DNA of 64,000 bases from Thermodesulfobacteriota bacterium (GCA_046753845.1 JBHHUP010000003.1:6236-70235), one strand, 5' to 3'. Counted from the stretch's first letter, positions 36,110 through 64,000 are shown. Notes: generated by a model not told the origin, from the letters alone. Program-made: numbers and translations.

Positions 36110-36127
36110 AGCAACAAACATGCCACG
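36110..36127 (-). promoter_or_regulatory. sigma-54 promoter (TGGCATG-N4-TTGCT) upstream of the TPR-kinase-regulator operon
   Basis: Minus-strand reading: CGTGGCATGTTTGTTGCT, 15-25 nt upstream of the GTG start. It is immediately downstream of the FleQ-like gene. Confidence 0.6.
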
Positions 36128-38465: not shown

Positions 38466-39320
38466 ATGTTTCCCATAATAGGATTAGTCGTAGTTTTTGG
38501 TGCCATAATCGCAGGTTACACAATGGAGGAAGGTAACTTTTCTATTCTCATACAGCCAGCGGAGCTCATTACCATCGGCGGAGCGGCCATTGGCTCTCTT
38601 GTTGTCTCATGCCCGTCAAATCTCTTAAAAGACGTCTTTAAGGCCATCCCGGCCATCATAAAAGGGAGTACTCTCAAGAAGAGCCATTACATTTCACTAC
38701 TAACGCTATTATACGGTATTTTTTCAAAGATAAAAAAAGAGGGCCTGCTATCTGTAGAAAAAGATGTGGAGAGCCCAAAAACCAGTCCCCTCTTCAAAGG
38801 CTGTAAGGATATCATGAAAAATCACCATGCTCTGAATTTCCTATGCGATAACTTGAGGGTATTTATCATAGGCATTAAGCCTACGGAGATGGAAGATCTA
38901 ATGGATATTGAGATGGACAGTCACCACGAGGAGGCTGCTGTTACCCCCGGCATCATCACCAAGGTTGGCGATGCCCTTCCGGGATTCGGTATTGTTGCGG
39001 CGGTGCTCGGGATTGTCATTACCATGGGTAAGATGAGTGAAGGCCCAGAGGTCATCGGGCACAGCGTTGCCGCTGCACTTGTAGGGACATTTCTGGGAAT
39101 ACTTCTGAGTTACGGTGTAGTTGGTCCCCTTGGCAGCCACCTTGAGCACAAGAACAGAGAGGACGGCAAATACATAGAGACCATAAAGATAGCGCTTCTG
39201 GCCTTTGCCAAGGAGCTGCCGCCTCAGATGGCGGTAGAGGCCGGAAGAAGGACAATATTCAGCGGGGCGCGGCCATCCTTCAAGGATCTTGAGGACGCTA
39301 TCAAGAAAAACAAAAAATAA
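38466..39320 (+). CDS. motA: second flagellar stator protein MotA
   Basis: 284 aa, four TM helices, 'GFGIVAAVLGIVITMGKMSEGPEVIGHSVAAALVGTFLGILLSYGVVGP'. Confidence 0.85.
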   Translation: MFPIIGLVVVFGAIIAGYTMEEGNFSILIQPAELITIGGAAIGSLVVSCPSNLLKDVFKAIPAIIKGSTLKKSHYISLLTLLYGIFSKIKKEGLLSVEKDVESPKTSPLFKGCKDIMKNHHALNFLCDNLRVFIIGIKPTEMEDLMDIEMDSHHEEAAVTPGIITKVGDALPGFGIVAAVLGIVITMGKMSEGPEVIGHSVAAALVGTFLGILLSYGVVGPLGSHLEHKNREDGKYIETIKIALLAFAKELPPQMAVEAGRRTIFSGARPSFKDLEDAIKKNKK

Positions 39321-39332
39321 TAAGGTCTGGTA

Positions 39333-40136
39333 ATGGAAAGCAACGAGACTCAGCCCATAATAATTAAGAAGGTCATTAAAAAAGGGCATGGCGGCGGCCA
39401 CCACGGCGGAGCGTGGAAGGTTGCCTATGCCGACTTTGTAACGGCCATGATGGCTTTTTTCATGGTGCTCTGGCTTGTGGCCATGATGAGCATTGAGGCC
39501 AAGAAAGACATGGCCGAGTACTTCAGGAGTTATACTATATTTGAGGGTACCGAGGCCGGCGGCGGTAAAGGCGTCTCCATCATGAGCGGTAATCCTGTCC
39601 TGCTAAATAAGGCATCGGAGGTTACGACGCCCAAACCAAGCTCCAGCTCGTCAAGCAGCCTGAGTATTCTGCTTACAAAATCAATTAACACTCACCTGCG
39701 TGAATTAAAGGATCAGATACTTATATTTTCAACTAACGACGGGGTAAGACTTGAGCTTGTAGACCTTGATGACAGCCCAATGTTTGAGCGCGGCGGCGGA
39801 AGGCTTGTACAGAGGGGCGAGGAGGTCTTCAAGGTCCTCGCTGAATCTCTAAAGAAGATGCCTTACAAGATAGCCATCGAGGGACATACGGACAGTTTCA
39901 AGTTCGCCAATAAGGAGCATACGAACTGGGAGCTCGCCGCCGAGAGGGCCAACAGCGCAAGAAGGGAGCTTATAAAGAACGGCCTTGATGAGAAACGCAT
40001 CTCCAGGGTATCGAGTTTTGCAGACGTAGTACCCTTAAACGGAAGAGATACCTTTGACCCCATCAACAGGCGTGTAAGTATTCTTGTGCAGAAGAACAAA
40101 TACTCACCCGGGGCAGAAGACGATATCTTCAGGTAG
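39333..40136 (+). CDS. motB: second flagellar stator protein MotB (OmpA-like)
   Basis: 'WKVAYADFVTAMMAFFMVLWLV' and the OmpA motif 'IEGHTDSFKF...NWELAAERANSARREL...NRRVSILV'. Confidence 0.85.
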   Translation: MESNETQPIIIKKVIKKGHGGGHHGGAWKVAYADFVTAMMAFFMVLWLVAMMSIEAKKDMAEYFRSYTIFEGTEAGGGKGVSIMSGNPVLLNKASEVTTPKPSSSSSSSLSILLTKSINTHLRELKDQILIFSTNDGVRLELVDLDDSPMFERGGGRLVQRGEEVFKVLAESLKKMPYKIAIEGHTDSFKFANKEHTNWELAAERANSARRELIKNGLDEKRISRVSSFADVVPLNGRDTFDPINRRVSILVQKNKYSPGAEDDIFR

Positions 40137-40337: not shown

Positions 40338-40919
40338 TTAGTGAGTACCGGCATCTTTCTTATTCGAACCGCTCCGTATCATCCTTCTCTGCCAGGCGAA
40401 GATATACCGCACAATTCTCTCCCTTACCCTGTCATCCATATCCACAAACTTTATCCCCACCTTCCATCCCCCCTCGATATTATCGCATACCCAGACGACC
40501 TCTCCTGTGACATCAAGGTCCTGGGTCTGATTAGGGAGAAATAATTTTATCGCAAGCTCATCGCCCTCACTGAACTGCTTATTGCATAGAATCTTAATAC
40601 CTCCGCCGCTTATGTTATCTATACGGGCCTCGGGTATCTCAAAACAGCGTTCGCTGGTGGTCTGCGTAAGGAGCTTTTTCAGCTTCTGGTTTATCTCAAT
40701 CAGAAGATCGTACATATCAGGGTCGTCTGAGGAGATGGCCTCCACCTTTCTTGCAAAGGACCTCAGCTCCCGGATATTCACGGCGGTATCTGTAATATTG
40801 ACACCTTGTTTTGCCACATAATACATGGGTATACTGTCATCTATTCTCACATACTCGCGATTATTAGAAATCATGCCAACCATGTACATCACCTCTTCTC
40901 TTTCATTGACATTATCCAT
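40338..40919 (-). CDS. PilZ-domain protein (YcgR/MotI-like candidate c-di-GMP flagellar effector)
   Basis: 193 aa. 'RIDNISGGGIKILCNKQFSEGDELAIKLFL...GEVVWV...GIKFVDMD' matches the PilZ (D/N)xSxGG barrel motif. No canonical RxxxR motif at the usual spacing. It is the last gene of the flagellin-fliD-fliS operon. Confidence 0.5.
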   Translation of the reverse strand: MDNVNEREEVMYMVGMISNNREYVRIDDSIPMYYVAKQGVNITDTAVNIRELRSFARKVEAISSDDPDMYDLLIEINQKLKKLLTQTTSERCFEIPEARIDNISGGGIKILCNKQFSEGDELAIKLFLPNQTQDLDVTGEVVWVCDNIEGGWKVGIKFVDMDDRVRERIVRYIFAWQRRMIRSGSNKKDAGTH

Positions 40920-40926
40920 CTTTAGA

Positions 40927-41271
40927 TTACCTTTGTAATTTCATGTTAACCATAGGCGAGGCGTAGGCCCTGTGCGCCCTGGTACAATGTAATACTTTCC
41001 GGAGTTCCCGGCGGGTTTCTTCAAGCGCGCCTTCCATAGAGACCCGGAGATCGCAGTCAAAGTTAAGTATCTCTTTTATAATATCTTGCTCCATATTTTT
41101 TTGCGCCTCCACCGCCTTTATCTTACTTATTCTGGAGATAATCTCATCGCGTTCAAGGATGGAACCCGCGAGCTCAGTGAGACGATTTTCAGAAAAAAGT
41201 CCTTTTTGGGCCCTGGCGATATTGAGCAGTCTCTTTAATAAATCAATTCTATCCGCGTTCTCAAGCTCCAT
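40927..41271 (-). CDS. small helical protein in the FliT position (possible flagellar chaperone)
   Basis: About 115 aa downstream of fliS, as fliT is in the Bacillus fliD-fliS-fliT arrangement. Probable start 'MELENADRIDLLKRLL'. No diagnostic motif. Confidence 0.3.
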   Translation of the reverse strand: MELENADRIDLLKRLLNIARAQKGLFSENRLTELAGSILERDEIISRISKIKAVEAQKNMEQDIIKEILNFDCDLRVSMEGALEETRRELRKVLHCTRAHRAYASPMVNMKLQR

Positions 41272-41674
41272 ATCCAGCCCCCGCTTCAATTGAAGGTTTT
41301 TCAGCCCCTGCGCCGGATGCCACAAGAGCGTCCCAGCCTTCTTTGACCTCGGCGAATAGCGCCGTAACACCCTCGATAATCCTTATAGAGTTCTTATTAT
41401 TTGCCTCGGCAAGCCTCGTAAGTGAGTGCAGATAGAGGTCCCGGAGGTTAATGGCCACCTCTTCACCCCTCTGCATATCAAGAGCGTTGTATAGCTCGCT
41501 TATAATGGCGATGGATCTGTTTATATACTCGCTGCGCTTCTCTATATCATTGTCTTTTATCGCCAGAGCCGCGAGCCTGTTGAACTTGATAACACCCTCG
41601 TAAAGCATTACAACAAGGCGAACCCTGTCAGATGTCATTACCTGAACCTTCTGATATGCCTTGATACCTTTCAT
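41261..41674 (-). CDS. fliS: flagellin-specific chaperone FliS
   Basis: 137 aa. 'RLVVMLYEGVIKFNRLA' and 'IISELYNALDMQRGEEVAINLRDLYLHSLTRLAEAN'. Confidence 0.85.
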   Translation of the reverse strand: MKGIKAYQKVQVMTSDRVRLVVMLYEGVIKFNRLAALAIKDNDIEKRSEYINRSIAIISELYNALDMQRGEEVAINLRDLYLHSLTRLAEANNKNSIRIIEGVTALFAEVKEGWDALVASGAGAEKPSIEAGAGYGA

Positions 41675-43152: not shown

Positions 43153-43995
43153 CTACCTTAAGAGCTGCAGCGCGCTCTGAGGCAGTGTATTAGCCTGAGC
43201 AAGTACGGAGATACCTGCCTGAACCATTATCTGGTTCTTTGTGAAAGTGGCCGTCTCCGAGGCAAAGTCAGCATCTCTTACCCTGGATTCAGCGGCCTGG
43301 AAGTTAGTGAATGTTACCTGAAGGTTCTGCAGCGCAACGTTAAGCCTGTTTGTTGTGGCGCCGTATACGGCCCTTGCGCTGTTGATTCTGTTAAGAGCGA
43401 CGCTTACGGCATCAAGGGCGTTAAGCGCGCCCGTTACGCTTGAGAGGGCTCCGGCGGAGAGACTGAGACCTACGTTACCGGTAGCGCCCGCGCTTGTCAG
43501 GGCGACAAGGCTTACACTGAGCTGGTTGTCAACTGAGTTCTTAAAACCAATAAACATGGTAAGCGAGGAGATGGAGCCGTTAAGGAGCTTGAAGCCTCCG
43601 AACTCCGTTGTACCGGCGATCCTGTCTATCTCGCTTATGAGTTTATCGTACTCATCCTTAAAGAACGTTCTTGCATTGGAATCAAGGGTTCCCTGTGCGG
43701 CGCTGGCAGCAAGCTCACCCATCCTTGTAATGATGCTTGTAACCTGCTCAGCGGCCTTATCACTTATTTCCATCGCGCTTACGCCGTCATTGACGTTCCG
43801 CATGGCGGCCTGAATCATCCTGGACTGACTGCGGAGCTGGTCGGCTCTTGCAAGTCCGGCGGCGTCATCAGCAGAGCTGTTTACCCTGTGACCCGATGAC
43901 AGCCTCTGAACGCTTATCTTCAACATCGCGTTCGAAGAGCTGATGTTCTGCTGCGCCAGTAGTGAAGCTATGTTGGTATTAATCGTTAAAGCCAT
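43153..43995 (-). CDS. fliC: flagellin (short D0-D1-only type, 280 aa)
   Basis: N-terminal 'INTNIASLLAQQNISSSNAMLKISVQRLSSGHRVNSSADDAAGLA' and C-terminal 'ESRVRDADFASETATFTKNQIMVQAGISVLAQANTLPQSALQLL'. Confidence 0.9.
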   Translation of the reverse strand: MALTINTNIASLLAQQNISSSNAMLKISVQRLSSGHRVNSSADDAAGLARADQLRSQSRMIQAAMRNVNDGVSAMEISDKAAEQVTSIITRMGELAASAAQGTLDSNARTFFKDEYDKLISEIDRIAGTTEFGGFKLLNGSISSLTMFIGFKNSVDNQLSVSLVALTSAGATGNVGLSLSAGALSSVTGALNALDAVSVALNRINSARAVYGATTNRLNVALQNLQVTFTNFQAAESRVRDADFASETATFTKNQIMVQAGISVLAQANTLPQSALQLLR

Positions 43996-44117
43996 GTTCT
44001 TACCCTCCTTAGTGTGTTACGGCATCCCTGCCAGATAATTAACTGTCCGGAGAGTAAAAGGCTTCTTTGATATATCCCTCCTTTTACGCCCTACTTAACA
44101 CCGGACTCTTAATAACC

Positions 44118-44144
44118 TTATCGGCAGCAAGGTAAGAAACTTTA
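44118..44144 (-). promoter_or_regulatory. sigma-28 (FliA) promoter of the flagellin operon, perfect consensus
   Basis: Minus-strand reading: TAAAGTTT-cttaccttgct-GCCGATAA, about 120 nt upstream of the flagellin ATG and just after the stop of the upstream gene. Confidence 0.75.
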
Positions 44145-44152
44145 ATACCTGC

Positions 44153-44788
44153 TCACATATCGCCTCGGCTGAAGACCTTTTCCTCCATTTCTTTAAGGAG
44201 CGGTGTCAACTCATATTCGAGTATATCGGCAAGAAGCACATTATCGAGGGCCAGCCTCGCGTCCTTTAACGCAGACATATTCCGCAGTATATCCTCGTAA
44301 TAGGTTAGGGGATTTTCTTTAAATACATCTATGCTGTAAGCAAGGCCGCATTTATAGAGCGCGTCCATGGTCCTTACCATCTCTCCGGTGCTCTCAATAA
44401 TAGCGCCAAGGTAGTTATCTATCTCGCCTGAGCCGCGTCTGAGCGCGCCTGTCATATTCATCGCGAGCTCGCAGATAAAGGTAATGTACTCGCCAACAGT
44501 GTATATACCCTGCAGTACAACGTGGTCAATGCCGCTCGTAAAGAGCCGTAACTCGCCATAGCTTTTAAGGGGCTTATTAATAGCAGAGGCGTCCTTCCAC
44601 AAAGCGCCCTCGTTTCTGCCGTCAACCCATAACTCCATAATAAAACGCCTTAAGGGTTTTAAATCAGACTCCACGGCATCAACAAGATCGCCTACGGTAG
44701 AGCTTACTTTTACGCCGCTAAAATCCAGCCGGGCATCGTCAAGGTATATTTCCGTAATCATAGGAGACTCCTTTCTTGCTTTTTTCAC
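44153..44788 (-). CDS. hypothetical protein translationally coupled (ATGA) to the Maf-family gene
   Basis: 211 aa. No recognizable motif. 4-nt overlap with the upstream maf-like gene. Confidence 0.4.
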   Translation of the reverse strand: MKKARKESPMITEIYLDDARLDFSGVKVSSTVGDLVDAVESDLKPLRRFIMELWVDGRNEGALWKDASAINKPLKSYGELRLFTSGIDHVVLQGIYTVGEYITFICELAMNMTGALRRGSGEIDNYLGAIIESTGEMVRTMDALYKCGLAYSIDVFKENPLTYYEDILRNMSALKDARLALDNVLLADILEYELTPLLKEMEEKVFSRGDM

Positions 44789-46701
44789 TTTTTATTAACA
44801 GCAACCGGCATCTCTGCTTGCCCCTCCAAATTCAAGCACCGAACCTTTTTAAGGGCATCTGATATCTTGGGCAGGAAAAGAAGACACATCTTACGTACCT
44901 CCTTGTATGTGCGTATAGTACGATCGATATCCTTTCTGAACTGGTCTTCTGTTGAGCTCTCCTCATCCTCTTTCAGGTACTCCTTAAGGTCGTATGTATA
45001 CTCAACAAGGGCCTCCCAGAGAAAAGAGACCTCGCAGACAGCCTTAAAGAGCCTGCGTTCCTTTCTCCTTATCCTGTCAAGTTTACCGCTAAGCTCGGTA
45101 CGAAGCCCCCTGGATATAAAATCAACCTTAAGTACGCCGGCCCCCTTGATTATCTCCCCGGAGAGTTTTTCAACAATTCTTACCCTGTCTCGAAGTTTTG
45201 TAAAAGACTCTATAAGCCCTCTTATGTCTACATCAGGGGGCGTGCTCTCGCTTTGATGAAGTATCTTGTCCACGTCTACGGGTTTTTGCAGGTGCCTTCT
45301 GATAACCTCTTTGAGGGTTGTATGCTCCATGCCCTTTATAAAGGCCCCGCCCTCAGTGGCGTTGTATACACGGATTGAGGGAAACTGCTCTTTAAGCAGC
45401 GCAGTATAACGCTCAAACCACTGATGAAAGGTTACCCAGTCGTATTTGCTCGCTACGGGTTCACCGTTAAAACCTTGCAGCCACAGCAGCTTATGCGTAA
45501 TAGTACGCCGGTGACCTGATATATAATGCTCTTTTACACTGACAAGCCCCTTATCCTTGTCAATGGATATCCTCTGCTTATCGTAAACGCCTCCGCCAAC
45601 GTGGGTCATGTTTTTATCAAAGGCAAGATCCTGGCCGAGAAATATTATAGGGTCGCAGCCGAACATTACGCCCATATCAAACATGGCCGTAGTTACGGAG
45701 CCGCCGATTGATACAAAGGACTTACTCCCCCAGAGGCGCGCCTGCTGAAGGCTCAAGGCGATAAAGGGGCTGTAGAAGATAAATTTACCATGGGCTTCGC
45801 GCTTGAACATCTCCGGATGCGAGACCTCTGAGAGTATAAGGCGTATCTTTTTATCGGCCTCACCGCCGTCAAAGTATTCATCAAGATTAACTTTTTCTCC
45901 TGATATTACCGCGTGCGGCACGATACCGTAGCTTAGCAGGCTCTTATAAGCGGTTACGGCGGAGACTATAAAGGCCTTGTCTTTTAGCTCCGCAAGAAGT
46001 GATACGTTTTTTCGAAGCGATGGCCCGGCACCTACGATAATCATGGGAACGCCCTTGAATTGGTCACGCATAACATCTACAGAGGGATAGACAGGAAAGG
46101 CGTCGAGGTTGGCGAAATAATTCATCAGCCAGTCCAGCCTTGAGTCTATCTCTGTCTTTATGCCAACCATCTGCGAGGTATGGGCGTTCTGTATCTTAAC
46201 GAGAAATTCCTTAAGCTCACCCTGGAAGGTCAACCTGTAAGGCATGGTGTGGTAGCCGATGATACTGTCAACCCCTTCTGTAAACTGCTGAACCCGTGCG
46301 ATAAAGGGCCCTATATAATTTGCAAGGTAGACCCTCTGTCCGGAGAATTCTTTACTGAGGTCTATCTTCATAAGCACAGCCTTTAGTATCTCCATAGAGG
46401 GCTCATAGATAAAAATTTTCTGTGTGCCGCGCTTTAAGAGGGTAGACATAAGGTAACCGCATCCGAGTCCGAATAAGGCCACGGAGTCGGGTTTCTTGCC
46501 GAGTATCTCTTCGGCCTGCTCGTCAGCCTCCTTCCACGGCCCGTACTGGCTGTTAAAGAGGCGTCCCTTGTAGGAGAGGACAAACTCCTTATTCTTACCT
46601 CTGTAGATCTTGGCTACGTCCTTATTAAAGGCGCGCAGTCTCTCGGCGAGGATGCTGTCCTGTTTTGCTATGGCGGCGCAGTTAGTCTCGAAAATACTCA
46701 T
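44785..46701 (-). CDS. maf: motility-associated factor (Maf/DUF115 family) putative flagellin nonulosonic-acid glycosyltransferase
   Basis: 638 aa. The central 'GVPMIIVGAGPSL...NATEGGAF' MptE/DUF115-like core is typical of Campylobacter/Helicobacter/Aeromonas Maf proteins. Adjacent to flagellin and the pse genes. Confidence 0.65.
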   Translation of the reverse strand: MSIFETNCAAIAKQDSILAERLRAFNKDVAKIYRGKNKEFVLSYKGRLFNSQYGPWKEADEQAEEILGKKPDSVALFGLGCGYLMSTLLKRGTQKIFIYEPSMEILKAVLMKIDLSKEFSGQRVYLANYIGPFIARVQQFTEGVDSIIGYHTMPYRLTFQGELKEFLVKIQNAHTSQMVGIKTEIDSRLDWLMNYFANLDAFPVYPSVDVMRDQFKGVPMIIVGAGPSLRKNVSLLAELKDKAFIVSAVTAYKSLLSYGIVPHAVISGEKVNLDEYFDGGEADKKIRLILSEVSHPEMFKREAHGKFIFYSPFIALSLQQARLWGSKSFVSIGGSVTTAMFDMGVMFGCDPIIFLGQDLAFDKNMTHVGGGVYDKQRISIDKDKGLVSVKEHYISGHRRTITHKLLWLQGFNGEPVASKYDWVTFHQWFERYTALLKEQFPSIRVYNATEGGAFIKGMEHTTLKEVIRRHLQKPVDVDKILHQSESTPPDVDIRGLIESFTKLRDRVRIVEKLSGEIIKGAGVLKVDFISRGLRTELSGKLDRIRRKERRLFKAVCEVSFLWEALVEYTYDLKEYLKEDEESSTEDQFRKDIDRTIRTYKEVRKMCLLFLPKISDALKKVRCLNLEGQAEMPVAVNKK

Positions 46702-46732
46702 ATCAATACCCCGTACTTTTTACCATGGCAGG

Positions 46733-48823
46733 TTACATTACCTTCTCTGCCATGACCTTGAATCTTACCTCGTTAATTCCTCGCCATACCCAATAGGCCG
46801 TATCATCAACCTCGCCAGCGGAGTGATAGAGGCGCAGAAAAAACTCATTACCGGGTTCGCTGTAATTTATCATGGGCACGGTGTGCACAATGTTGCGCTC
46901 CGAAGATATGCATAGGGTCTTTTTCCTGTCCCCAAAGCTTACCCATCCTTCCGTGGCCCCAAGACAGCTTGTGCCCGATATGGCCGGGCTTACGGGCTTC
47001 GCGTGAGAGAGACTGCGACCGCTTAAGCTGAACCTCTCAGGCCCCGTACCGCCGTTAATGGTCTCGAACCACAGGTCTTTCTTATCAAAGGCCCCGGGCA
47101 TAAGCGTAAATATACCGAGGCGCAGGCTTGAAGCCGCCAGTCCCCGTGCCGTCAGCCTGTAGCTTAGAGTAAATTCATCCCCGCCCCGGGGGATTTGATA
47201 CTCCTTTACAAGCCTGCCTATGGACGTATCAATTACCGCGCTTATACGCACCCCGGCCTCGTCTTCAATCACAGTTGGCACGACAGGCACAAGGTCCGTA
47301 GTCTTTGTGCCGGCTCGGTCCGTATGTATGAGATGCCCTGAAAAAAAATCGGCCCCGAGCTCAATGGAATCAAAGTAACCGTGCCCGAGGGTGCCGAGCA
47401 GAGGCCGCGCTGAGACATGGGGAAAAAGAACCGAGGCAAGGGCAAGGCCCCTGTCTTTCAAAAACTCAATCTCAACCCTGCCGGTGGAGATGCGAAGGCG
47501 CCTTGCGTCCTCGTAGACCCTGACCTTGCTCCTGCCCGCCAGAGCCCTTGCCCCCTTTACAGGTAAAGAGAAGGCCACGCCCCCTGTGGTGCCCGTAGCG
47601 CGGAGCGCCCCTTCCTGTACAATGGATTCACTTCGCGCGAGATCCATGGAACCTTCAAGAGTAAGGTTTTTCCCTCTCTCCAGAAGACCGGCCTTGGAGA
47701 TTAGAGACCTGGTCTCAAAACTCAGCCACCCCAGTCGTTCGTTTAAATAAGCGAGCTTATCATCAGTGGTGTTTGTACGAAAATCACTGCCCCAGACCTC
47801 ACATAGCATCTCACACAGCTCACCCCTCCCCCGTAGCGCGCCCCCTGCCTCAAGGGCCAAAAGCTTCTTATATACACCGAGACACCGCGCGTTAAGATGG
47901 GCGCTGTCCCTACCCGTGACGCTCCACCTTAGCGGGTTGTACCGCTCCTGCTTCTTGCATACAATGGGCGTCTCCGTTGATTCAAGCCTTATGGGCGGGG
48001 CGTCGGAGCTACCCTTGAATTGACGTAGAATTTCCTCTGGCCTTAAAAGGGCAAATCTCTTCTCCATTATCAGCCCCTTTAAGAGCTCTCTTATCCTCTT
48101 AAAATCCCCCCGCGGCATCCGGCCGAGCCCCGGCCTGTAATCAAAGACCTCGGCGTCATTGGAATAGGCCACAAAGGCCCTCTCCTGCTCCTTATTATAA
48201 TGAGAGAGCAGATACTCTCTGTATTCTCTGGTAGATAGCTCGCCGCTGACGCATCGGCCAAACTTCTGAAAGGCTATGGAGTTTGACCATAGCAGCCCCA
48301 TGGACTCGCCGGGAAGCCTTCCGGCGGCCCTCTGCGGCGAGTACATAATCTCCGGCGCATACTCGTTATGACGGGAGCAGTTATTCCAGTCCATGATTAA
48401 GGCATCATAACCGGCCTCTTTATATAACCCCACAAGCCCGGCAGAAAAGGTCTGCTCATTGACAAGGGCTACTGATGGGCTAAACCCGAGAATTTCCTCG
48501 TAATACTTATTGCCAAGCTCAAGGTTCCATCTGTTAACCCCGGCCGGAATTAGAGGCATAATTGACTGAGCGTAACCTGAGCCGATAAAACTCATCCTGC
48601 CCGACCTTAATAACTCCTTAAGGCCTCGGGTAAAGGCCGGGTCTATGCTTTGAACCTCGCGAAGGGTCCATGCAGGCATCTCAATGGCGATAGGAATCCC
48701 CTCCTCGGCCATACGAAGTAAGGGCCAATAGCAGTTTTTGATAACAACAGGAAACTCCTCTCTCGCTATGAGAGAAAAAGCCAGATTGCAGTGAAATAAT
48801 ACGTAAAGGTTAAGCCTTGCCAT
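46733..48823 (-). CDS. large protein with a GH57-like N-terminal domain, function unknown
   Basis: 696 aa. The N-terminal 'LNLYVLFHCNLAFS' block resembles the GH57 / (beta/alpha)7 glycoside-hydrolase-like fold. The C-terminal half is uncharacterized. Co-operonic with maf. Confidence 0.35.
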   Translation of the reverse strand: MARLNLYVLFHCNLAFSLIAREEFPVVIKNCYWPLLRMAEEGIPIAIEMPAWTLREVQSIDPAFTRGLKELLRSGRMSFIGSGYAQSIMPLIPAGVNRWNLELGNKYYEEILGFSPSVALVNEQTFSAGLVGLYKEAGYDALIMDWNNCSRHNEYAPEIMYSPQRAAGRLPGESMGLLWSNSIAFQKFGRCVSGELSTREYREYLLSHYNKEQERAFVAYSNDAEVFDYRPGLGRMPRGDFKRIRELLKGLIMEKRFALLRPEEILRQFKGSSDAPPIRLESTETPIVCKKQERYNPLRWSVTGRDSAHLNARCLGVYKKLLALEAGGALRGRGELCEMLCEVWGSDFRTNTTDDKLAYLNERLGWLSFETRSLISKAGLLERGKNLTLEGSMDLARSESIVQEGALRATGTTGGVAFSLPVKGARALAGRSKVRVYEDARRLRISTGRVEIEFLKDRGLALASVLFPHVSARPLLGTLGHGYFDSIELGADFFSGHLIHTDRAGTKTTDLVPVVPTVIEDEAGVRISAVIDTSIGRLVKEYQIPRGGDEFTLSYRLTARGLAASSLRLGIFTLMPGAFDKKDLWFETINGGTGPERFSLSGRSLSHAKPVSPAISGTSCLGATEGWVSFGDRKKTLCISSERNIVHTVPMINYSEPGNEFFLRLYHSAGEVDDTAYWVWRGINEVRFKVMAEKVM

Positions 48824-48857
48824 AACGGGTTATCCCTTCTTTTGTCAAAAAAATTCT

Positions 48858-50438
48858 TTACGGGTATCTCTCACTCATCTTAAGTAGATCGTACTTTACA
48901 AACATGCCCGATGTCTCGTAGAGGACTTTTAGGAATATGGGCCTCTTTCTGCGCCATACATCGCTAATGTATCTGGGTGCGGCAGCGGGGTTTGACTTTA
49001 TGAGGTGATGGGTGCGGTCGGCCTCAACAATGGTCTCAATGTACTTCGAGGTAAAATCCCCTGTCGTAATATTCGGTTTTACCACCTCGAGCTTATCGTA
49101 GCTGAAGCCATCGGAAAACAGGCCCTCGGTCTCGCACCTCTTGAATAACTCCGTGCCCGGCAGAGGAGTAGCGATGTAGATTTCCCTGCTGTCAAATAAA
49201 CCGCTGTAGTTGGCCATGTACAGTGACCTTCTGATGTCCTTTTTTGTCTCTCCTGGCAGGCCTATGACAAAGGTTCCCGTAAGGTGCACGCCTTTTTTTC
49301 TCGCATACCGCAGCACCTCCATGGCCTTTGTTAACTTAAGAGGTTTTTTAACTACCCTTGTAAGCACCTCCTGAACACCTGACTCTATGGCAAAACCCAT
49401 TGAGGTACATCCTATCTCCATTAGTTTATCGATAAGCTCCTCATCCATGCACCAGAGCGCGAGGACCATGAAGTGAATCTCAAGTTTAAAACCCTGCCTC
49501 TTGAACTGGTCGCAGAACTCCTTTGCACGGGCCTTGTCATGGGTGAAGTTATCGTCTATTATCATGAGTTTTTTTATCTTGTATCTGTCTACCAGAAAAC
49601 GTATCTCAGCGAAAACCTCGTCGAGCTTACGGGCCCGAAACCTCCGCCCCATGGTGCGGTGCACGGAGCAGAAGACGCATGTCCCGGCGCACCCTCTGGT
49701 GGTAAGCACCGTGGGCATGGCCTGAGGCTCGCCCCAGGTAACCTTATTGGGTTTATAGTTACTGGAATATTTTTCGTATGGAAATAAATGCCATGCAGGG
49801 TAGGGCAGCGCGTCAAGGTCGGCTATAAAGGGACCCTGTGCGTTATTTACCACCGCCTCACCGTCTCTCCAGACAAGGCCCGGAACAGTACCGTATGAAG
49901 GGACATCGTTCTCTTTATTATCCTTATTATCGCTACTCTCTTTACCGCAGTCGCACTTTGCGCAGCCCTTGCAGTTATCACCGATGGCCCGTAGAAGAGC
50001 TGGAAAAGAAAGCTCTGCCTCACCCTTTAAGACAAAGTCTATTGCCCTGTTCTCCATAACCTCCTCTGCCATGGAGGTTGGATGATTGCCGCCCACTACT
50101 ACGACTGCCTCGGGCAGCATCTCCTTTACAAGGCAAGCCGTCTCGTTCATTGAGCCCACCATTACAGAAAAATTACAGCTAATACCCACAAGGTCGGGTG
50201 AGAATTTTTTAATCCTCTCCCTTACCTCATCCATGGGTATACCAACATCCACATATCCCTCTGTAAGAGGCGCATCTCTATCAAGGCCCTCGGTCTGGCA
50301 ATCAAGTATGGCTACGGTATAACCTTCGGCCTCAAGCACGGAGGCAAGGTACATAATCCCCATCGGCGGGTAGACGATGCGTTGGCCCGAGGTGGCTATC
50401 TTCATATTAGGCTGTAAAAGAAGTATCCTCTTTATCAT
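48858..50438 (-). CDS. B12-binding radical SAM enzyme
   Basis: 526 aa. N-terminal cobalamin-binding-like Rossmann region 'VVVVGGNHPTS'. CX3CX2C cluster 'TTRGCAGTCVFCSV'. Confidence 0.75.
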   Translation of the reverse strand: MIKRILLLQPNMKIATSGQRIVYPPMGIMYLASVLEAEGYTVAILDCQTEGLDRDAPLTEGYVDVGIPMDEVRERIKKFSPDLVGISCNFSVMVGSMNETACLVKEMLPEAVVVVGGNHPTSMAEEVMENRAIDFVLKGEAELSFPALLRAIGDNCKGCAKCDCGKESSDNKDNKENDVPSYGTVPGLVWRDGEAVVNNAQGPFIADLDALPYPAWHLFPYEKYSSNYKPNKVTWGEPQAMPTVLTTRGCAGTCVFCSVHRTMGRRFRARKLDEVFAEIRFLVDRYKIKKLMIIDDNFTHDKARAKEFCDQFKRQGFKLEIHFMVLALWCMDEELIDKLMEIGCTSMGFAIESGVQEVLTRVVKKPLKLTKAMEVLRYARKKGVHLTGTFVIGLPGETKKDIRRSLYMANYSGLFDSREIYIATPLPGTELFKRCETEGLFSDGFSYDKLEVVKPNITTGDFTSKYIETIVEADRTHHLIKSNPAAAPRYISDVWRRKRPIFLKVLYETSGMFVKYDLLKMSERYP

Positions 50439-51688
50439 CAGAGAGCCATCCTTAATGGTTTTTCCGTTATAATCTCCACAGCTGATATGGCACGGGCCGC
50501 CCTTGCCGCCGCCTCTTCCCTTGAGTCCCCCGTGGCTATTACCATGCCGGCGCGCCCGGGGTGCGAGACCACGGGAGAGAGGGTATCGCCCTCGTGCACA
50601 TAAAACCTCATTATCTTAATCCCAGGTATGTTCTCAAAGTCAGCGGCGCGGCGTATCTCTTTTACCACCCCCGACTCAGGAAACCAGAACCTCTGCGAGA
50701 CAAATCTCGTGAAATCAGCCCTGTAATCATCTGCCTTTAGACTTACTCCAAGGGCCAGCAATAAGGCCGCCTCTACAAGATTCACCCCCGTTGATAAGGG
50801 GATGGTATGGGTGCAGAAGTACCCGCCGCTAAGCCTTGTAGCCGCCTCTATAAGCACAGGGCCGCTGCCCGTCATTACGATATCGCCCTTAATCGTCCAG
50901 TTATCCATACCAAAGGCGCGGGCCACCTTTAGTATTACCTTGTCTATGGCAACAAGCTCACCGGGCCAGTGACGGGCCGGCAGGTCTCCGCCGTTCTCAA
51001 TGACATAAGGGGCGAACCTGGCGAGATGCTCATAGTTTCTGTCCGATAACCCCGGTGTAGCCACCACACCATCTGCGATAAGGGACTCCGTGCTTACCTG
51101 CTCACCCTCTACCCATTCCTCGGCCATGACACGGCCCGAGGGCGAGTTCTTAAGGGCCTCAGAATAGGCCCACGATGGCTCAACGCCCTCACTCAGCCGC
51201 ACTACGCCCCGTGCCCCCCGGCTGTCAACGGGTTTTACTACAAGGGGCCTCTCCCTCTCCCCCATAAAAACCTTAAGCTCCTCAGCCCCCTTTACAAGGG
51301 CAAACCACGGCACAGGCACGCCCATCTCTTTAAAGGCCTTCTTCATAAGAAACTTATCACTTGCTATGCGCGCTGATTCCACGGAAGGCCCGGGCAGCCC
51401 CAATTCCTCTGCTACTAAGGCTACTGTCATTGGCACATCAGCGGCCGCAGAAATAACACCATCAATGGGTGTACCTTTATTAGATGCCCGCGCAAGCCTC
51501 AGGGTCTCTTCCGCATCATATGTGCTCGCCACGATGGCCTCATGGGCAATGGCAAGACCGGGGGCAGCAGGGTCTCCATCAGATACCACGACTCGAAGGC
51601 CCATCTCACGGGCGCACTCTATAATGGGCAGGGCCTCTACGCCGCCTGAGATTATAAGAATATTTTTTCCCCTTACATTCACGGGCAT
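50438..51688 (-). CDS. ATP-grasp family ligase
   Basis: 416 aa. PreATP-grasp then ATP-grasp ('LVVKPVDSRGARGV', 'AEEWVEGEQVSTESL'). Overlaps neighbouring genes, so operonic. Confidence 0.7.
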   Translation of the reverse strand: MPVNVRGKNILIISGGVEALPIIECAREMGLRVVVSDGDPAAPGLAIAHEAIVASTYDAEETLRLARASNKGTPIDGVISAAADVPMTVALVAEELGLPGPSVESARIASDKFLMKKAFKEMGVPVPWFALVKGAEELKVFMGERERPLVVKPVDSRGARGVVRLSEGVEPSWAYSEALKNSPSGRVMAEEWVEGEQVSTESLIADGVVATPGLSDRNYEHLARFAPYVIENGGDLPARHWPGELVAIDKVILKVARAFGMDNWTIKGDIVMTGSGPVLIEAATRLSGGYFCTHTIPLSTGVNLVEAALLLALGVSLKADDYRADFTRFVSQRFWFPESGVVKEIRRAADFENIPGIKIMRFYVHEGDTLSPVVSHPGRAGMVIATGDSREEAAARAARAISAVEIITEKPLRMAL

Positions 51689-52731
51689 ACAACCACCTTT
51701 ACGGCCTTTGATGTCTTTTTATTAAAGGCGATATCAAAACCGTCCATTATATCTCCAAGTGCCACTTTATGCGTTATAAGCGAGTCTGCCTGCACCAGCC
51801 CGTCAGCAAACAGCCCAAGGGACTTCACAAAGTCACGCCTCCTATAACGCTGCGAGCCGCGGATCTGAATCTCTTTTTCCGTGAGATTCTTCAGATTCAT
51901 CCTCGGCGTCTCGTAATGAACGCCTGAGAGGATAATAATCCCCCCTGCCTCAAGGGCCGCTATTGAGGTAGTTATGGAATCACTCCCATAACCTCCCGCT
52001 GTCTCAAAAGCCAGGTTAAAGCAATCCTCACGACTTAACTCCTCATCACACTCGGCCTCGGGGTCAAGTGCCCTATCAGCGCCCATGGTGATGGCGAGCT
52101 CTCTTTGATAATCATGCCTTCCAAGGGCCGTCACATATGAGGCCCCTGCGAGCTTAAGGGCCCTGATGGTAAGGAGCCCCAGAGTGCCGCATCCTATGAC
52201 AAGGGCCCTTTTTCCGGCTACTGCTCCGGCCACGGAGAGGGCATGAAGAGCATCAGCAAAGGGCTCTACAAGGACGGCCTCATCAAAAGTGAGTTCATCC
52301 GGTATCTCAAAGACATTTGCCGCGGGCAGGGCAACCATATCGGCAAAACCGCCGGGACGGTTAAAGCTCACAAAGGTCGCCTTCCTGCATAGATTTTTTC
52401 GTCCCGCCTTACAGAGAGAGCAGCTCTGGCATGGCACGAGAGGCGAGAGGCAGACTCTTGTGCCCGCCTTCAACCCCCTTACGCCGCGGCCCCTCTGCTC
52501 TACAATACCGCTTATCTCGTGGCCTGCCCAGTACACGGGCACAGGCGGGTCGCGGTAAAAGATATTAAGGTCGCTCCCGCATATGCCGCATGCCTTTACA
52601 CGAATTAGGACCTCGCCTTTTTGCGGCCCGAAAAAACTCCAACGCCGCACCCCAAGCTCACCGGGTCCGTTAAATACGGCGGCCCTAAGCTCCAGACGCT
52701 CTTCTGATCTCTTCTCTAAACATGTACTCAC
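51679..52731 (-). CDS. Zn-dependent alcohol dehydrogenase (MDR; sorbitol/threonine dehydrogenase-like)
   Basis: 'ACGICGSDLNIFY' with 'GHEISGIV' and a GxGxxG Rossmann 'VIGCGTLGL'. The called start overlaps the FSA gene; the true start is probably an internal non-ATG codon. Confidence 0.75.
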   Translation of the reverse strand: MSTCLEKRSEERLELRAAVFNGPGELGVRRWSFFGPQKGEVLIRVKACGICGSDLNIFYRDPPVPVYWAGHEISGIVEQRGRGVRGLKAGTRVCLSPLVPCQSCSLCKAGRKNLCRKATFVSFNRPGGFADMVALPAANVFEIPDELTFDEAVLVEPFADALHALSVAGAVAGKRALVIGCGTLGLLTIRALKLAGASYVTALGRHDYQRELAITMGADRALDPEAECDEELSREDCFNLAFETAGGYGSDSITTSIAALEAGGIIILSGVHYETPRMNLKNLTEKEIQIRGSQRYRRRDFVKSLGLFADGLVQADSLITHKVALGDIMDGFDIAFNKKTSKAVKVVVCP

Positions 52732-53377
52732 GTCCCGGCACCTCCTCCCAGTCTTTTAAGAACTTCTCAAGGTCCATATCAGTCATGGTATTAAGGAGCA
52801 TCTTCTCAAGGATAACAAAAGGCACGGTTGCGATATGAACACCGGCCTTTGCTATCTCAACTATCTGATGAGGGTCGCGAATGCTCGCGGCTATTACCTC
52901 GGTCTTGGAGTCATGACGCAGTAAGGCATCCATAAGCTCACGCACCATGCCAAGGCCGTCGTAGCCCCTGTCCTCAAGGCGGCCGATAAAGGGACTGACA
53001 TAATCAGCTCCGGCCATACTGGCAAGAAGTGCCTGTGTGGGTGAGAATACAAGCGTAAGGTTGGTCTTTACTGACTCGCCGCGAAGCAGCGTCAATGCCT
53101 CCATGCCCGCGGGGTTGGCCGGAAGCTTCACAACAACGTTACGTGATATCTCCGATAGCTTTCTTGCCTGATCGGCCATGGCCTCGCCTTCTCTATCCAC
53201 TACCTCAAGGCTTACGGGCATGGGATATACGGTCTCGCATATCTCTGTTGCAAGTGAGCAAAAATCCCTCTTCTGCCTTGAGATAATAGATGGATTTGTC
53301 GTTATACCGCTTAGCACTCCCCAAGACTTTGCCCTTTTTATCTCTTTAATATCAGCTGTATCTAAGAATAACTTCAT
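52685..53377 (-). CDS. fructose-6-phosphate aldolase / transaldolase (TalC/FSA subfamily)
   Basis: 230 aa. 'MKLFLDTADIKEIK...GVLSGITTNPSI' and the Schiff-base Lys region 'VVVKLPAN'. SD GGAGGA 5 nt upstream. Confidence 0.8.
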   Translation of the reverse strand: MKLFLDTADIKEIKRAKSWGVLSGITTNPSIISRQKRDFCSLATEICETVYPMPVSLEVVDREGEAMADQARKLSEISRNVVVKLPANPAGMEALTLLRGESVKTNLTLVFSPTQALLASMAGADYVSPFIGRLEDRGYDGLGMVRELMDALLRHDSKTEVIAASIRDPHQIVEIAKAGVHIATVPFVILEKMLLNTMTDMDLEKFLKDWEEVPGREYMFREEIRRASGA

Positions 53378-53441
53378 ACTAATCCTCCATATTTATAGGC
53401 CTTGTTAACTTCGCTCTCCTTCCCGCCTGCTCCACCGCTTT

Positions 53442-53542
53442 ATCGCGCCTGCCCCCCCTGTTGCACTCTACCTTTTCTGTCCTGCCCCACTTCGCGCCCT
53501 ACCCCCTCCCCACCCTGCACCTTCGCACCCTGCCCCCTCCCC
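53442..53542 (-). other. G-run-rich repeat element on the transcribed strand in the 200-nt ADH-FSA intercistronic gap
   Basis: Plus strand holds three copies of tcgcRcc(c)tRccccctcccc (53442-53460, 53491-53511, 53522-53542). On the mRNA these are GGGGAGGGGG(C/T)AGGG(C/T)GCGAA, that is many G3-G7 tracts. Confidence 0.5.
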
Positions 53543-53577
53543 TTTTTCATCACCACATCAGCCCCCTTTAAAGCCCA

Positions 53578-63296: not shown

Positions 63297-64000
63297 CGCG
63301 ATCAAACTCCCTGATGATTTTGTTGAGTTGAAACCTGTCGAGTTTTTTCTCGTTAGTATCACTGGAAAAAATAAAACCCTCTGGAACCTTGGAGCCGTCT
63401 GTCTGTTTTTCTTCGCTCCACCAGGAAAAGTGCGGCTGCACAACAAAGTGGTCATCATACTCAAGCGTAAGCCTGCCGTCCTCTTTTGAGATAAGAACCT
63501 CGTGGAGTTTCTCCCCTGGACGTATGCCTATAAGGTCGAACTTGCACTCAGGGACAATGGCCTTTGCCACATCTACTATGGGGGTGCTCGCTATCTTGGG
63601 GACAAAGATCTCGCCGCCGCGCATACGCCCAAGAGATTTCAGGACAAAATCAGCGCTCTGCTCAAGGGTTATCCAGAACCTTGTCATCCGCATATCCGTA
63701 ATAGGCATAACGCCCGTCTTTTTCATCTTCAGGAATAATGGTATGACGCTGCCGCGGCTCCCGGCTACGTTGCCGTAACGTACTACGGAAAAACGCGTGG
63801 GTTTACTGCCGGCGTAGGAGTTACCTGATACAAATAGTTTATCGGAGCATAGCTTTGTGGCGCCGTAAAGATTAACGGGGTTAACGGCCTTGTCTGTAGA
63901 GAGTGCCACAACCTTCTTAACGCCGCTGTCCATGGAGACATCTATTATGTTTTTCGCTCCCAGTATATTGGTCTTAATGACCTCAAAGGGGTTATACTCC
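63229..64000 (-). CDS. pseB: UDP-GlcNAc 4,6-dehydratase (inverting) PseB/FlaA1, 5'-truncated by the window edge
   Basis: The reading frame stays open to the window end ('EYNPFEVIKTNILGAKNIIDVSMDSGVKKVVALSTDKAVNPVNLYGATKLCSDKLF'). C-terminal half of an SDR-extended dehydratase. Confidence 0.8.
   Translation of the reverse strand, partial: EYNPFEVIKTNILGAKNIIDVSMDSGVKKVVALSTDKAVNPVNLYGATKLCSDKLFVSGNSYAGSKPTRFSVVRYGNVAGSRGSVIPLFLKMKKTGVMPITDMRMTRFWITLEQSADFVLKSLGRMRGGEIFVPKIASTPIVDVAKAIVPECKFDLIGIRPGEKLHEVLISKEDGRLTLEYDDHFVVQPHFSWWSEEKQTDGSKVPEGFIFSSDTNEKKLDRFQLNKIIREFDRGAKKTYRIRRPNNRRRGYKVCT

Follow-up and report, generated by a model that had tools for sequence, protein, structure and literature searches.

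Organization of the Locus

The sequence analyzed here, termed the window, is a 64,000-nucleotide (64-kb) stretch from an uncultured Thermodesulfobacteriota metagenome-assembled genome (MAG; GCA_046753845.1, JBHHUP010000003.1:6236-70235), and the system in question is an island of sugar-biosynthesis genes that occupies its final third and leads into a flagellin gene. Listing of the open reading frames (ORFs), followed by a scan of the proteins with Pfam and NCBIfam models, reveals 18 genes in succession on the minus strand between position 43153 and the end of the window (Table 1). In the order of transcription the first half comprises a partial PseB, PseC, a NeuB-family synthase, a CTP_transf_3 cytidylyltransferase, a class-III aminotransferase, a Gfo/Idh/MocA oxidoreductase, a PseG-like protein and two S-adenosylmethionine (SAM) methyltransferases. 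The second half continues with a Zn-dehydrogenase, an aldolase of the fructose-6-phosphate aldolase (FSA)/TalC type, another Zn-dehydrogenase, an ATP-grasp ligase, a B12-binding radical SAM enzyme, a GH57-like protein, Maf, a protein of no family and the flagellin. The gene inventory of the initial annotation, which had been made from the nucleotide sequence, is borne out, with all 17 families predicted on the minus strand between 44153 and the window end recovered by Pfam and NCBIfam.

The remainder of the window consists of flagellar and chemotaxis DNA. A metagenomic contig, L002, matches window positions 59395-64000 with 0 mismatches over 4606 nt and adds 6.8 kb beyond the window end, where the gene order before pseB is a possible flgI followed by flgJ-flgM-flgN-flgK-flgL-csrA-fliW. 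The island sits between flgK-flgL-csrA-fliW on one side and fliC-fliD-fliS on the other. For comparison, 80 loci were taken from species-representative genomes using a profile of the GH57-like protein (177 confirmed among the pattern matches) and all island proteins were scored against them. Loci are termed close where the identity of the GH57-like protein is at least 44%, which applies to 42 of them, and counts are given only for loci where the contig allows the test. The earlier proposal of a flagellin glycosylation locus holds, as Maf adjoins fliC, the island lies between fliW and fliC within a 64-kb flagellar and chemotaxis region, and 35 of the 36 close relatives share this synteny. It is a genuine operon for flagellin glycosylation, and its general type, in which a pseudaminic acid (Pse)-type sugar is combined with a Maf transferase, is already known.

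Neighboring genes overlap by up to 68 bases or are separated by at most 34 bases, with the sole exception of a 200-bp spacer at 53378-53577, and the description of the gene train as uninterrupted is correct for the tight or overlapping junctions and fails at this spacer. The spacer is purine-rich with imperfect GGGGAGGGGG-type repeats, and its equivalent in relatives measures 20 to 244 nt and is G-rich in the closest relatives only. A 48-aa ORF called inside it in one assembly is probably spurious. The G+C content of the island (47-55%) compared with that of the remaining window (45-55%) gives no sign of recent horizontal acquisition, and the island is syntenic in relatives down to ~45% protein identity. 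An Rfam scan of the island gives no match, and there are no G/C homopolymers in it that would resemble the phase-variable tracts of Campylobacter, the only runs being A8, T9 and T8.

To judge from these features and the evidence set out below, the product of the operon is probably a CMP-activated nonulosonic acid of the Pse type with an acyl group other than acetyl, and this sugar would be O-linked to Ser/Thr residues in the D1 domain of the adjacent flagellin.

TABLE 1. Genes and sequence elements of the island and its surroundings, in the order of transcription, with further promoter motifs last. Extended coordinates continue the numbering of the window on contig L002.
Feature	Position	Strand	Match or remark
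Sigma-54-type motif TGGCATGCAAGTTGCA	extended 64303-64318 (L002:6529-6544)	-	30 nt ahead of pseB ATG
PseB, inverting UDP-GlcNAc 4,6-dehydratase	63229..64000, full gene to extended 64272	-	TIGR03589; cut by window end
PseC, UDP-4-amino-4,6-dideoxy-N-acetyl-beta-L-altrosamine transaminase	62094..63296	-	TIGR03588
NeuB-family nonulosonate synthase	61054..62097	-	NeuB 8.5e-84 and SAF domain
CTP_transf_3 cytidylyltransferase, presumed CMP-sugar synthetase	60209..61063	-	CTP_transf_3 2e-22
Class-III aminotransferase, glutamate-1-semialdehyde-aminomutase-like	58894..60204	-	Aminotran_3 1.5e-44
Gfo/Idh/MocA oxidoreductase	57870..58889	-	GFO_IDH_MocA N- and C-terminal domains
Divergent PseG-like protein, putative UDP-sugar hydrolase	56876..57877	-	TIGR03590 below cutoff
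SAM methyltransferase 2, 317 aa	55923..56876	-	Methyltransf_23 2.5e-24; adjoins PseG-like gene
SAM methyltransferase 1, 421 aa	54676..55941	-	Methyltransf_23 4e-15 and related families; domain at 198-316
Zn-dependent alcohol dehydrogenase (ADH), class-III / NDMA-dependent ADH-like	53578..54675	-	ADH_N 1e-25, ADH_zinc_N 1e-19
G-rich spacer, 200 bp	53378..53577	-	only sizeable operon gap; between second Zn-dehydrogenase gene (counted by ascending coordinate) and aldolase gene
Fructose-6-phosphate aldolase / TalC-type transaldolase (C-C bond-forming)	52685..53377	-	TAL_FSA 2.5e-48
Zn-dependent alcohol dehydrogenase, threonine-3-dehydrogenase-like	51679..52731	-	ADH_N 9e-27, ADH_zinc_N 9e-16
ATP-grasp carboxylate-amine ligase, L-amino-acid-ligase type	50438..51688	-	LAL_C2 7e-18, ATPgrasp_N, ATP-grasp_3
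Class-B (B12-binding domain) radical SAM enzyme	48858..50438	-	B12-binding PF02310 1e-23, 83.5 bits; Radical_SAM PF04055 1e-20, 74.7 bits
GH57-like protein, 696 aa	46733..48823	-	PF03065 7e-15, 55.5 bits vs cutoff 21.2
Maf-type flagellin nonulosonic-acid glycosyltransferase, 638 aa	44785..46701	-	MptE-like and Maf_flag10_N, above Pfam cutoffs
202-aa protein, no family	44153..44761 (ORF to 44788)	-	always behind maf
Sigma-28 (FliA)-type fliC promoter, TAAAGTTT-N11-GCCGATAA (given also as TAAAGTTT-N11-GCCGATA)	44119..44144	-	sequence read
Flagellin, 280 aa, D0/D1 only, presumed target	43153..43995	-	Flagellin_N 4e-36, Flagellin_C 1e-22
Sigma-54-type motifs	19340-19355, 23847-23862, 36110-36125	-	intergenic, upstream of other minus-strand operons of flagellar region

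Nonulosonic Acid Core Enzymes

The first two enzymes fit the Pse pathway best. The start of pseB lies past the window end, at extended coordinate 64272 as read from the identical contig, and the 256-aa fragment encoded within the window scores 346 bits on TIGR03589 over model positions 91-323 compared with 19 bits on the LegB model. Because the window ends inside the gene, the fragment falls below the TIGR03589 cutoff of 407.75. The protein carries a basic C-terminal extension of ~22 aa past the PseB model. PseC passes its equivalog cutoff (TIGR03588, 454.8 bits versus 423.5), whereas the LegC model gives 214 bits against a cutoff of 420. The start of pseC is probably the GTG at 63296, to which the sequence points together with an AGGGAG ribosome-binding site that falls within pseB, and would overlap the 3' end of pseB by ~68 nt (63229-63296). 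A Pse type for the early steps of the pathway is thereby supported at the level of protein sequence.

The enzymes that would act later are divergent. The NeuB homologue scores 359 on the NeuB_NnaB model (cutoff 399.65) and 302 on the PseI model TIGR03586 (cutoff 340.25), passing neither, and is equally close to Neisseria meningitidis NeuB (197 bits) and to the chain named "Pseudaminic acid synthase" in PDB code 8H2C (195 bits). The cytidylyltransferase has no PseF match in NCBIfam and gives weak KdsB-type matches only, its best PDB match being 6OEW, named simply "Cytidylyltransferase." The PseG-like protein aligns with positions 5-268 of the 280-position TIGR03590 model at 98 bits compared with a cutoff of 153.55, with no Pfam match and no PDB match at E ≤ 0.01. 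The labels pseI, pseF and pseG in the initial annotation are without support at the equivalog level in NCBIfam, and the established PseB/C/G/I/F route that it invoked is retained for PseB and PseC and not for the three genes that fail their cutoffs.

No acetyltransferase family corresponding to PseH or to the GCN5-related N-acetyltransferases (GNAT) is found among the 18 genes of the train, among the genes upstream of pseB in the 6.8 kb past the window end or in the 31-43-kb part of the window, in agreement with the earlier remark that no GNAT-type PseH is visible. The enzymes preceding the missing PseH step thus look canonical and all those following it are divergent, a pattern that would be expected if the 4-amino group took a substituent bulkier than acetyl.

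Between the cytidylyltransferase and the PseG-like gene lie two enzymes that probably convert a hydroxyl of the sugar into an extra amine by oxidation followed by transamination, to judge from their families. The Gfo/Idh/MocA oxidoreductase matches the UDP-GlcNAc 3-dehydrogenase model (7e-19), and its best PDB matches are 3Q2K and 3Q2I, which we take to be WlbA nucleotide-sugar 3-dehydrogenases. The class-III aminotransferase scores 431 bits on PRK06209 compared with a cutoff of 486, and its PDB matches include sugar (C-6') and aminopentol aminotransferases. Methyltransferase 2, which closes this group, belongs to the widely conserved core with 40-76% identity across phyla.

These scores bear on an alternative in which the sugar is not Pse-configured and is of the legionaminic acid type, another stereoisomer or a triamino nonulosonic acid, with the oxidoreductase/aminotransferase pair acting before the condensation to change the configuration or to add an amine. 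Such a product would be consistent with a NeuB homologue for which the NeuB model outscores the PseI model, which passes neither cutoff and ties between N. meningitidis NeuB and the 8H2C chain, with a cytidylyltransferase that is not PseF-like and with an oxidoreductase resembling nucleotide-sugar 3-dehydrogenases. However, the strong preference of the PseB fragment for the inverting dehydratase model over LegB, a PseC that passes its equivalog cutoff with LegC well short of its own, and a PseG-like protein in a train where Pfam and NCBIfam place no gene in the NeuC/LegG-type hydrolyzing 2-epimerase family all argue for the Pse configuration, and a different configuration is considered unlikely.

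Putative Tailoring Cassette and ATP-grasp Ligase

The ATP-grasp ligase, the PDB matches of which are the L-amino-acid ligases 3VOT and 4WD3, is proposed from its family to be the N-acylating enzyme standing in for PseH. The genes on either side of it form a cassette in which methyltransferase 1, a Zn-dehydrogenase, the aldolase and a further Zn-dehydrogenase precede the ligase and the radical SAM enzyme follows it. Methyltransferase 1 occurs only in loci also carrying the radical SAM, aldolase and dehydrogenase genes and so belongs to a lineage-specific cassette. The dehydrogenases remain below the cutoffs of their equivalog models, that at 53578-54675 scoring 237 bits on TIGR03989 (cutoff 440) and that at 51679-52731 scoring 179 bits on the Tdh model (cutoff 380). 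The aldolase reaches 245.7 bits on TIGR00875 against a cutoff of 245.95 and is the best-conserved gene of the island, with 80-91% identity in relatives.

The radical SAM enzyme has a CxxxCxxC motif (C-AGT-C-VF-C) in its translation and the domain architecture of class B. It matches no characterized equivalog (Sden_1168, PhpK, BchE, HpnJ, AprD4 and others), the best being the Sden_1168 P-methyltransferase at 235 bits compared with a cutoff of 575, and its best PDB match is AprD4 (PDB code 6FD2), a dehydratase. The enzyme is probably a C-methyltransferase, and other radical chemistry is possible; methylation is the most common expectation only, because there is no characterized equivalog and the nearest structure is that of a dehydratase. 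Nothing was found in the literature tying radical SAM enzymes or transketolases to flagellin glycosylation.

Related Loci and Interchangeable Cassettes

A constant order is seen across the 80 genomes, namely the nonulosonic acid core, a variable cassette, the ATP-grasp gene and the GH57-like gene. The core runs pseB-pseC-neuB-cytidylyltransferase-(aminotransferase-oxidoreductase)-PseG-like-methyltransferase 2 and is followed by 2-5 kb of variable cassette; after the ATP-grasp and GH57-like genes the close relatives continue with maf, the 202-aa gene, fliC and fliD. An ATP-grasp homologue is encoded no more than 3.5 kb upstream of the GH57-like gene in 36/38 close and 26/34 distant loci. In the close loci maf is directly behind the GH57-like gene in 35/36, the 202-aa protein is behind maf in all 36 and fliC is within range in 27/28.

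The cassette type of the window is common to ~11-15 relatives, down to ~46% identity in the GH57-like protein, and other loci carry different genes in its place. One (L083) has a methyltransferase, a short-chain dehydrogenase/reductase (SDR) and KduI. Another (L084) has a methyltransferase, an SDR and a thiamine pyrophosphate (TPP) enzyme with a 48%-identical ATP-grasp protein, a set like Shewanella SfmB/C/D/E. In the cultured Desulfuromonas sp. CSMB_57 (L081 1-16000) a methyltransferase, a pyruvyl transferase, a split transketolase and an SDR precede the ligase, which is followed by a PIG-L deacetylase, a formyltransferase and the GH57-like gene and then by two flagellin genes as well as flaG and fliD; this locus also carries a PseG-like protein and methyltransferases. 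The gene contents suggest that the cassettes are interchangeable and follow one logic, in which a ketol- or aldol-transferring C-C ligase is paired with reductases and methylases.

No Maf is found within 10 kb at the Desulfuromonadales/Desulfobulbales loci, that of Desulfuromonas sp. CSMB_57 included, where the GH57-like gene directly precedes the flagellin genes. The distant GH57-like proteins (34-39% identity) come from MAGs labeled Acidobacteriota, Gemmatimonadales, Dehalococcoidia, Patescibacteria, Omnitrophota, Nitrospirota and others, and lie beside an ATP-grasp gene in 26/34 and beside nonulosonic acid genes in 22/29 cases, usually without Maf or flagellin.

The same comparison is relevant to a simpler explanation, in which the product is plain di-N-acetyl pseudaminic acid made with an unlinked PseH or a promiscuous acetyltransferase, and the ten extra genes serve unrelated metabolism or another surface polymer. 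PseB and PseC are canonical as this would require, aldolases and Zn-dehydrogenases are often housekeeping enzymes with the present aldolase standing at the TalC/FSA equivalog threshold, and distant GH57-like/ATP-grasp pairs are often in non-flagellar clusters. The extra genes are, however, within the operon, between the core and maf, with junctions that overlap or are near zero, and the same slot is filled by other tailoring cassettes in related loci. Moreover, no GNAT is encoded in the island or the 6.8 kb past the window end, the PseG-, PseI- and PseF-like enzymes are all divergent, and the analogous genes in Shewanella alter the flagellin mass when mutated, as seen for the sfm mutants (PMC3765264). 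A plain di-N-acetyl sugar is accordingly given little probability. The initial annotation had the extra enzymes tailoring the sugar, which is plausible given the alternative cassettes in the same slot; its description of the pathway as unusually elaborate and the product as of unknown structure understated the precedents in Shewanella and Treponema.

GH57-like Protein

The GH57-like protein, which is 100% identical to a protein from a Thermodesulfobacteriota MAG, is composed of a (beta/alpha)7 barrel, a helical region and a beta-sandwich. The sole PDB match of its family profile is the Thermococcus litoralis 4-alpha-glucanotransferase (PDB code 1K1W, 8e-11), and Glu-123 and Asp-223 align with Glu-123 and Asp-214 of that enzyme, its catalytic nucleophile and acid/base. 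Neither residue varies among 21 close and 19 diverse homologues, down to 36% identity. The AlphaFold2 model (predicted local distance difference test (pLDDT) 79.8) searched with Foldseek retrieves GH57 (PDB code 1K1X, 5e-23) and GH38 mannosidases at template modeling (TM) scores of 0.6-0.68, with the architecture matching over the full length. The protein looks catalytically competent, as predicted from the model, because the Glu/Asp pair is kept and the GH57/GH38 architecture is complete. The barrel, the C-terminal beta-sandwich and the aligned pair are shared with the T. litoralis enzyme, whereas the identity is ~12% and the context is nonulosonic acid biosynthesis in the island compared with alpha-glucan metabolism for 1K1W. 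The genomic context argues for a substrate other than an alpha-glucan, the GH57-like protein being the constant partner of the ATP-grasp ligase in nonulosonic acid clusters of many phyla, often without flagella. Nothing was found in the literature linking GH57 to nonulosonic acids, flagellin or flagellin glycosylation.

A role as a de-N-acetylase of the GH/CE superfamily, exchanging the acetyl group in concert with the ATP-grasp ligase, was considered and rejected, as the GH57 Glu/Asp pair is strictly conserved and the Desulfuromonas locus has a separate PIG-L deacetylase and formyltransferase for that task.

A different reading makes the GH57-like protein the key extra step, adding or trimming a second sugar-like unit so that the glycan would be of a disaccharide type, and possibly serving as the flagellin glycosyltransferase where Maf is absent. 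The catalytic pair invariant across the family, the full GH57/GH38-type architecture of the model and a sugar-like outer moiety of the Shewanella glycan (C9H16O7 plus methyls) fit this reading; at the Maf-less Desulfuromonadales and Desulfobulbales loci the gene stands directly before the flagellin genes, and a transferase or trimming role may therefore be entertained. Yet GH57 and GH38 enzymes are alpha-glycan hydrolases or transglycosylases and not known users of nucleotide sugars, Maf is directly downstream both here and in 35/36 close relatives, and the Maf-less loci could encode Maf elsewhere, so that such a role is judged improbable.

A broader proposal is offered tentatively and is considered less likely than not. 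In it the GH57-like proteins would be a hitherto unrecognized enzyme class dedicated to acyl-tailored nonulosonic acids, performing a glycosidic-type step, in which a bond on the sugar or on the moiety attached to it is made or broken, through the Glu/Asp pair together with the ATP-grasp ligase, in an ancient portable module with swappable C-C ligase cassettes (aldolase, transketolase, acetolactate-synthase-like) that would generate species-specific sialic-acid-like surfaces, and might themselves deliver the sugar to flagellin in Maf-less loci. The module would be spread through Thermodesulfobacteriota, Desulfuromonadales, Nitrospirota, Acidobacteriota, Gemmatimonadota, Chloroflexota, Patescibacteria and others.

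Maf, the 202-Residue Neighbor and the Flagellin

Maf is assigned from two Pfam domains above cutoff, PF01973 MptE-like (1.4e-33, 116.5 bits, cutoff 34.6) and PF20157 Maf_flag10_N (1.2e-7, 31.8 bits, cutoff 23.5), a match to the PseD domain model (1e-35) and a weak match to the Magnetospirillum magneticum Maf structure (PDB code 5MU5). The initial annotation had named the lack of a Maf hit at 44785..46701 as one example of what would speak against its reading, and the hit is obtained. No tetratricopeptide repeat (TPR) family is matched in Pfam at E ≤ 0.01. The gene lies ~790 nt upstream of fliC within the pse-type operon and is the only maf in the locus. A second Maf/GH57-like pair suggested by protein size elsewhere in the window was discarded, as the 696-aa ORF (11238-13328) reads by eye as a polytopic FlhA-type export protein and the 640-aa ORF (6347-8269) as a HEAT-repeat-like protein; the size match is seemingly coincidence.

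The protein encoded behind maf most likely starts at Met-10 of its ORF, as in the NCBI annotation and its homologues, giving 202 residues. This start is 23 nt past the maf stop, so that the two genes, which the earlier description had called coupled, would not overlap. No Pfam or NCBIfam model matches the protein. Its AlphaFold2 model (pLDDT 87) shows a beta-grasp domain (strands 4-77) followed by a four-helix bundle (residues 78-197), and gives no significant PDB fold, with only generic helical bundles returned by Foldseek (E ≥ 0.04). The family counts 450 representatives at 50% clustering, nearly all of ~200 aa, and a cluster look-up of the distant relatives returns MAG proteins without names only. 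Weak precomputed Pfam hits to DUF8042 and TP0873_N, the latter named after a Treponema pallidum protein, are attached to some homologues (L083:13988-14584; P0127, P0131, P0137, P0138) and are not reproduced here. They hint that the family extends to spirochaetes, the flagellins of which bear an acylated Pse-type sugar.

In Shewanella a TPR-less Maf, Maf-2, requires GlfM, an 89-aa four-helix-bundle adaptor encoded alongside it (bioRxiv 10.1101/2023.12.03.569772). The 202-aa protein likewise adjoins a TPR-less Maf and departs from the pattern of a small ~89-aa bundle in its size and its added beta-grasp domain; by reasonable functional analogy it is a candidate Maf/flagellin adaptor.

The central segment of the flagellin, residues 142-193, contains 14 Ser/Thr residues. 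The suggestion that glycans would decorate the D1 domain of this short flagellin has a direct structural precedent in FlaB of Treponema denticola (PMC13439194).

Promoters and Timing of Expression

The sigma-28 motif at 44119-44144 is the sole match in the 64-kb window, where 0.03 would be expected by chance. The island had been placed downstream of this flagellin promoter; the relation is inverted, the train being upstream, because the promoter falls between the last island gene, encoding the 202-aa protein, and fliC.

The consensus for the -24/-12 elements of sigma-54 promoters is TGGCAC-N5-TTGCW. A motif of this type lies 30 nt ahead of pseB, and the window itself holds three more exact matches to TGGCAY-N5-TTGCW, where chance would give 0.15, preceding fliL, a gene for a 583-aa protein and a TPR-protein gene. 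Two sigma-54 activators are encoded nearby. On the strength of these motifs and activators the glycosylation operon is therefore most likely a sigma-54-driven (middle-class) flagellar operon that would be switched on before the sigma-28-dependent flagellin, and the four motifs together suggest a sigma-54-driven flagellar hierarchy that includes it. Scans for generic sigma-70 promoters and terminators give results at or near the shuffled background.

Some features of the surroundings are recorded here. The csrA and fliW genes are at L002:5505-6226, with the 20-kb island between them and the flagellin gene; in Bacillus csrA-fliW and the flagellin gene are adjacent. The fliC leader (43996-44118) contains several GGA motifs, one in the ribosome-binding site, and is compatible with CsrA control. 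Behind fliS, at 40338-41370, are genes for a PilZ-domain protein (193 aa) and a family-less 147-aa protein, and in relatives comparable positions are taken by fliT and a PilZ protein. Two motA/motB-type stator pairs are present in the window, at 38466-40136 on the plus strand and at 29-1500 on the minus strand, the former being the only plus-strand ORFs given a family and the latter judged from translations.

Proposed Pathway

In the proposed pathway PseB, as judged from its fragment, and PseC, an equivalog-level match, would convert UDP-GlcNAc to UDP-4-amino-4,6-dideoxy-beta-L-AltNAc. In place of PseH, the cassette would make a hydroxylated, methylated carboxylic acid using the FSA-type aldolase to form a C-C bond, the two Zn-dehydrogenases, the B12-radical SAM enzyme and methyltransferase 1, and the ATP-grasp ligase would join this acid as an amide to an amino group of the sugar. 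The PseG-like, NeuB-like and cytidylyltransferase proteins would then carry the bulkier intermediate to the CMP-sugar, with further amination and methylation contributed by the Gfo/Idh/MocA oxidoreductase, the class-III aminotransferase and methyltransferase 2. The product would keep the N-acetyl group inherited from UDP-GlcNAc alongside the cassette-made acyl group. The TPR-less Maf would move the sugar onto flagellin, probably aided by the 202-aa adaptor if the GlfM/Maf-2 analogy holds, and the GH57-like protein with its intact Glu/Asp pair may perform a glycosidic-bond-type step tied to the ATP-grasp reaction. Expression would probably begin from the sigma-54 promoter upstream of pseB, ahead of the flagellin. 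An acylated Pse is proposed because the making of such an acyl group calls for an aldolase, dehydrogenases, methyltransferases and an amide ligase.

Several observations weigh against this scheme. The scores of the NeuB homologue and its tie between 8H2C and N. meningitidis NeuB mean that the synthase is not Pse-specific by score. The aldolase, being at the FSA/TalC equivalog threshold and the best conserved of the island proteins, could be a housekeeping transaldolase merely residing here, and the nearest solved relative of the radical SAM enzyme is no methylase. The GH57-like step is unaccounted for by the pathway. Finally, the 202-aa protein, more than twice the size of GlfM, has no detectable sequence kinship and no significant fold kinship to flagellar chaperones.

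Comparison with Known Systems

Decoration of flagellin with nonulosonic acids is needed for filament assembly in several bacteria and shapes phage and immune recognition, and the chemical nature of the attached groups has been established in only a handful of species. The locus and its 80 relatives suggest a genetic grammar of a constant core, a swappable C-C-ligase/reductase/methylase cassette and a constant ATP-grasp and GH57-like pair, which could predict the diversity of nonulosonic acid sugars from genomes. The GH57-like enzyme and the 202-aa Maf neighbor are two conserved proteins that provide concrete targets. New here are the cassette of FSA aldolase, two Zn-dehydrogenases and B12-radical SAM enzyme, and the recurrence of the GH57-like/ATP-grasp pair with swappable cassettes across many phyla.

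The PseBCHGIF pathway of Campylobacter jejuni and Helicobacter pylori, with its Maf/PseD/PseE transferases, shares with the locus a PseB, matched over its fragment, a PseC, matched at equivalog level, and an overall logic in which UDP-GlcNAc is converted to a 6-deoxy-diamino hexose, condensed with phosphoenolpyruvate (PEP), activated with CMP and transferred by Maf. In contrast to those species, the island has no PseH, its PseG, PseI and PseF are replaced by divergent members below the model cutoffs, there are no poly-G/C tracts and a single Maf is present, and extra GH57-like, ATP-grasp, radical SAM, aldolase and dehydrogenase genes are added.

The flagellin modification system of Shewanella oneidensis MR-1 is closer. 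PseB and PseC are recognizable there with no clear PseH, PseG, PseI or PseF, and the flagellin glycan, which requires sfmABCDE (NeuB domain, TPP enzyme, SDR, methyltransferase and ATP-grasp), is a nonulosonic acid with a single N-acetyl group and a 236-264-Da methylated, oxygen-rich C9-C11 moiety (PMC3765264). The two systems have in common a flagellin of ~270-280 aa, clear PseB and PseC without a clear PseH/G/I/F, genes for an ATP-grasp ligase and a SAM methyltransferase within the modification operon, a Maf that lacks a TPR domain and has a small helical-bundle protein encoded beside it, and linkage to sigma-28 and the flagellar regulon. They differ in the cassette, which in Shewanella contains an IlvB-like TPP enzyme and an SDR, both absent from the island in Pfam and NCBIfam, whereas here an FSA-type aldolase, two Zn-dehydrogenases and a B12-radical SAM enzyme are found. 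The Maf neighbors differ as well, GlfM being of 89 aa and the protein here of 202 aa with an extra beta-grasp domain, so that the likeness is by analogy only.

In T. denticola, FlaB is a D0/D1-only flagellin bearing a 2-methoxy-4,5,6-trihydroxyhexanoyl-Pse-type sugar (PMC13439194). The glycan proposed here from the genes alone would share with it the Pse configuration, an O-methylated polyhydroxy acyl group and O-linkage to Ser/Thr on D1 loops of a D0/D1 flagellin, whereas the organism and the type of flagellum, which is periplasmic and sheathed in Treponema, are different. By analogy with both systems the locus most likely falls within the acyl-tailored subclass that Shewanella and Treponema represent, and the range of such acylated Pse glycans would then come to include environmental lineages of sulfate reducers as well as non-flagellar clusters of many phyla.

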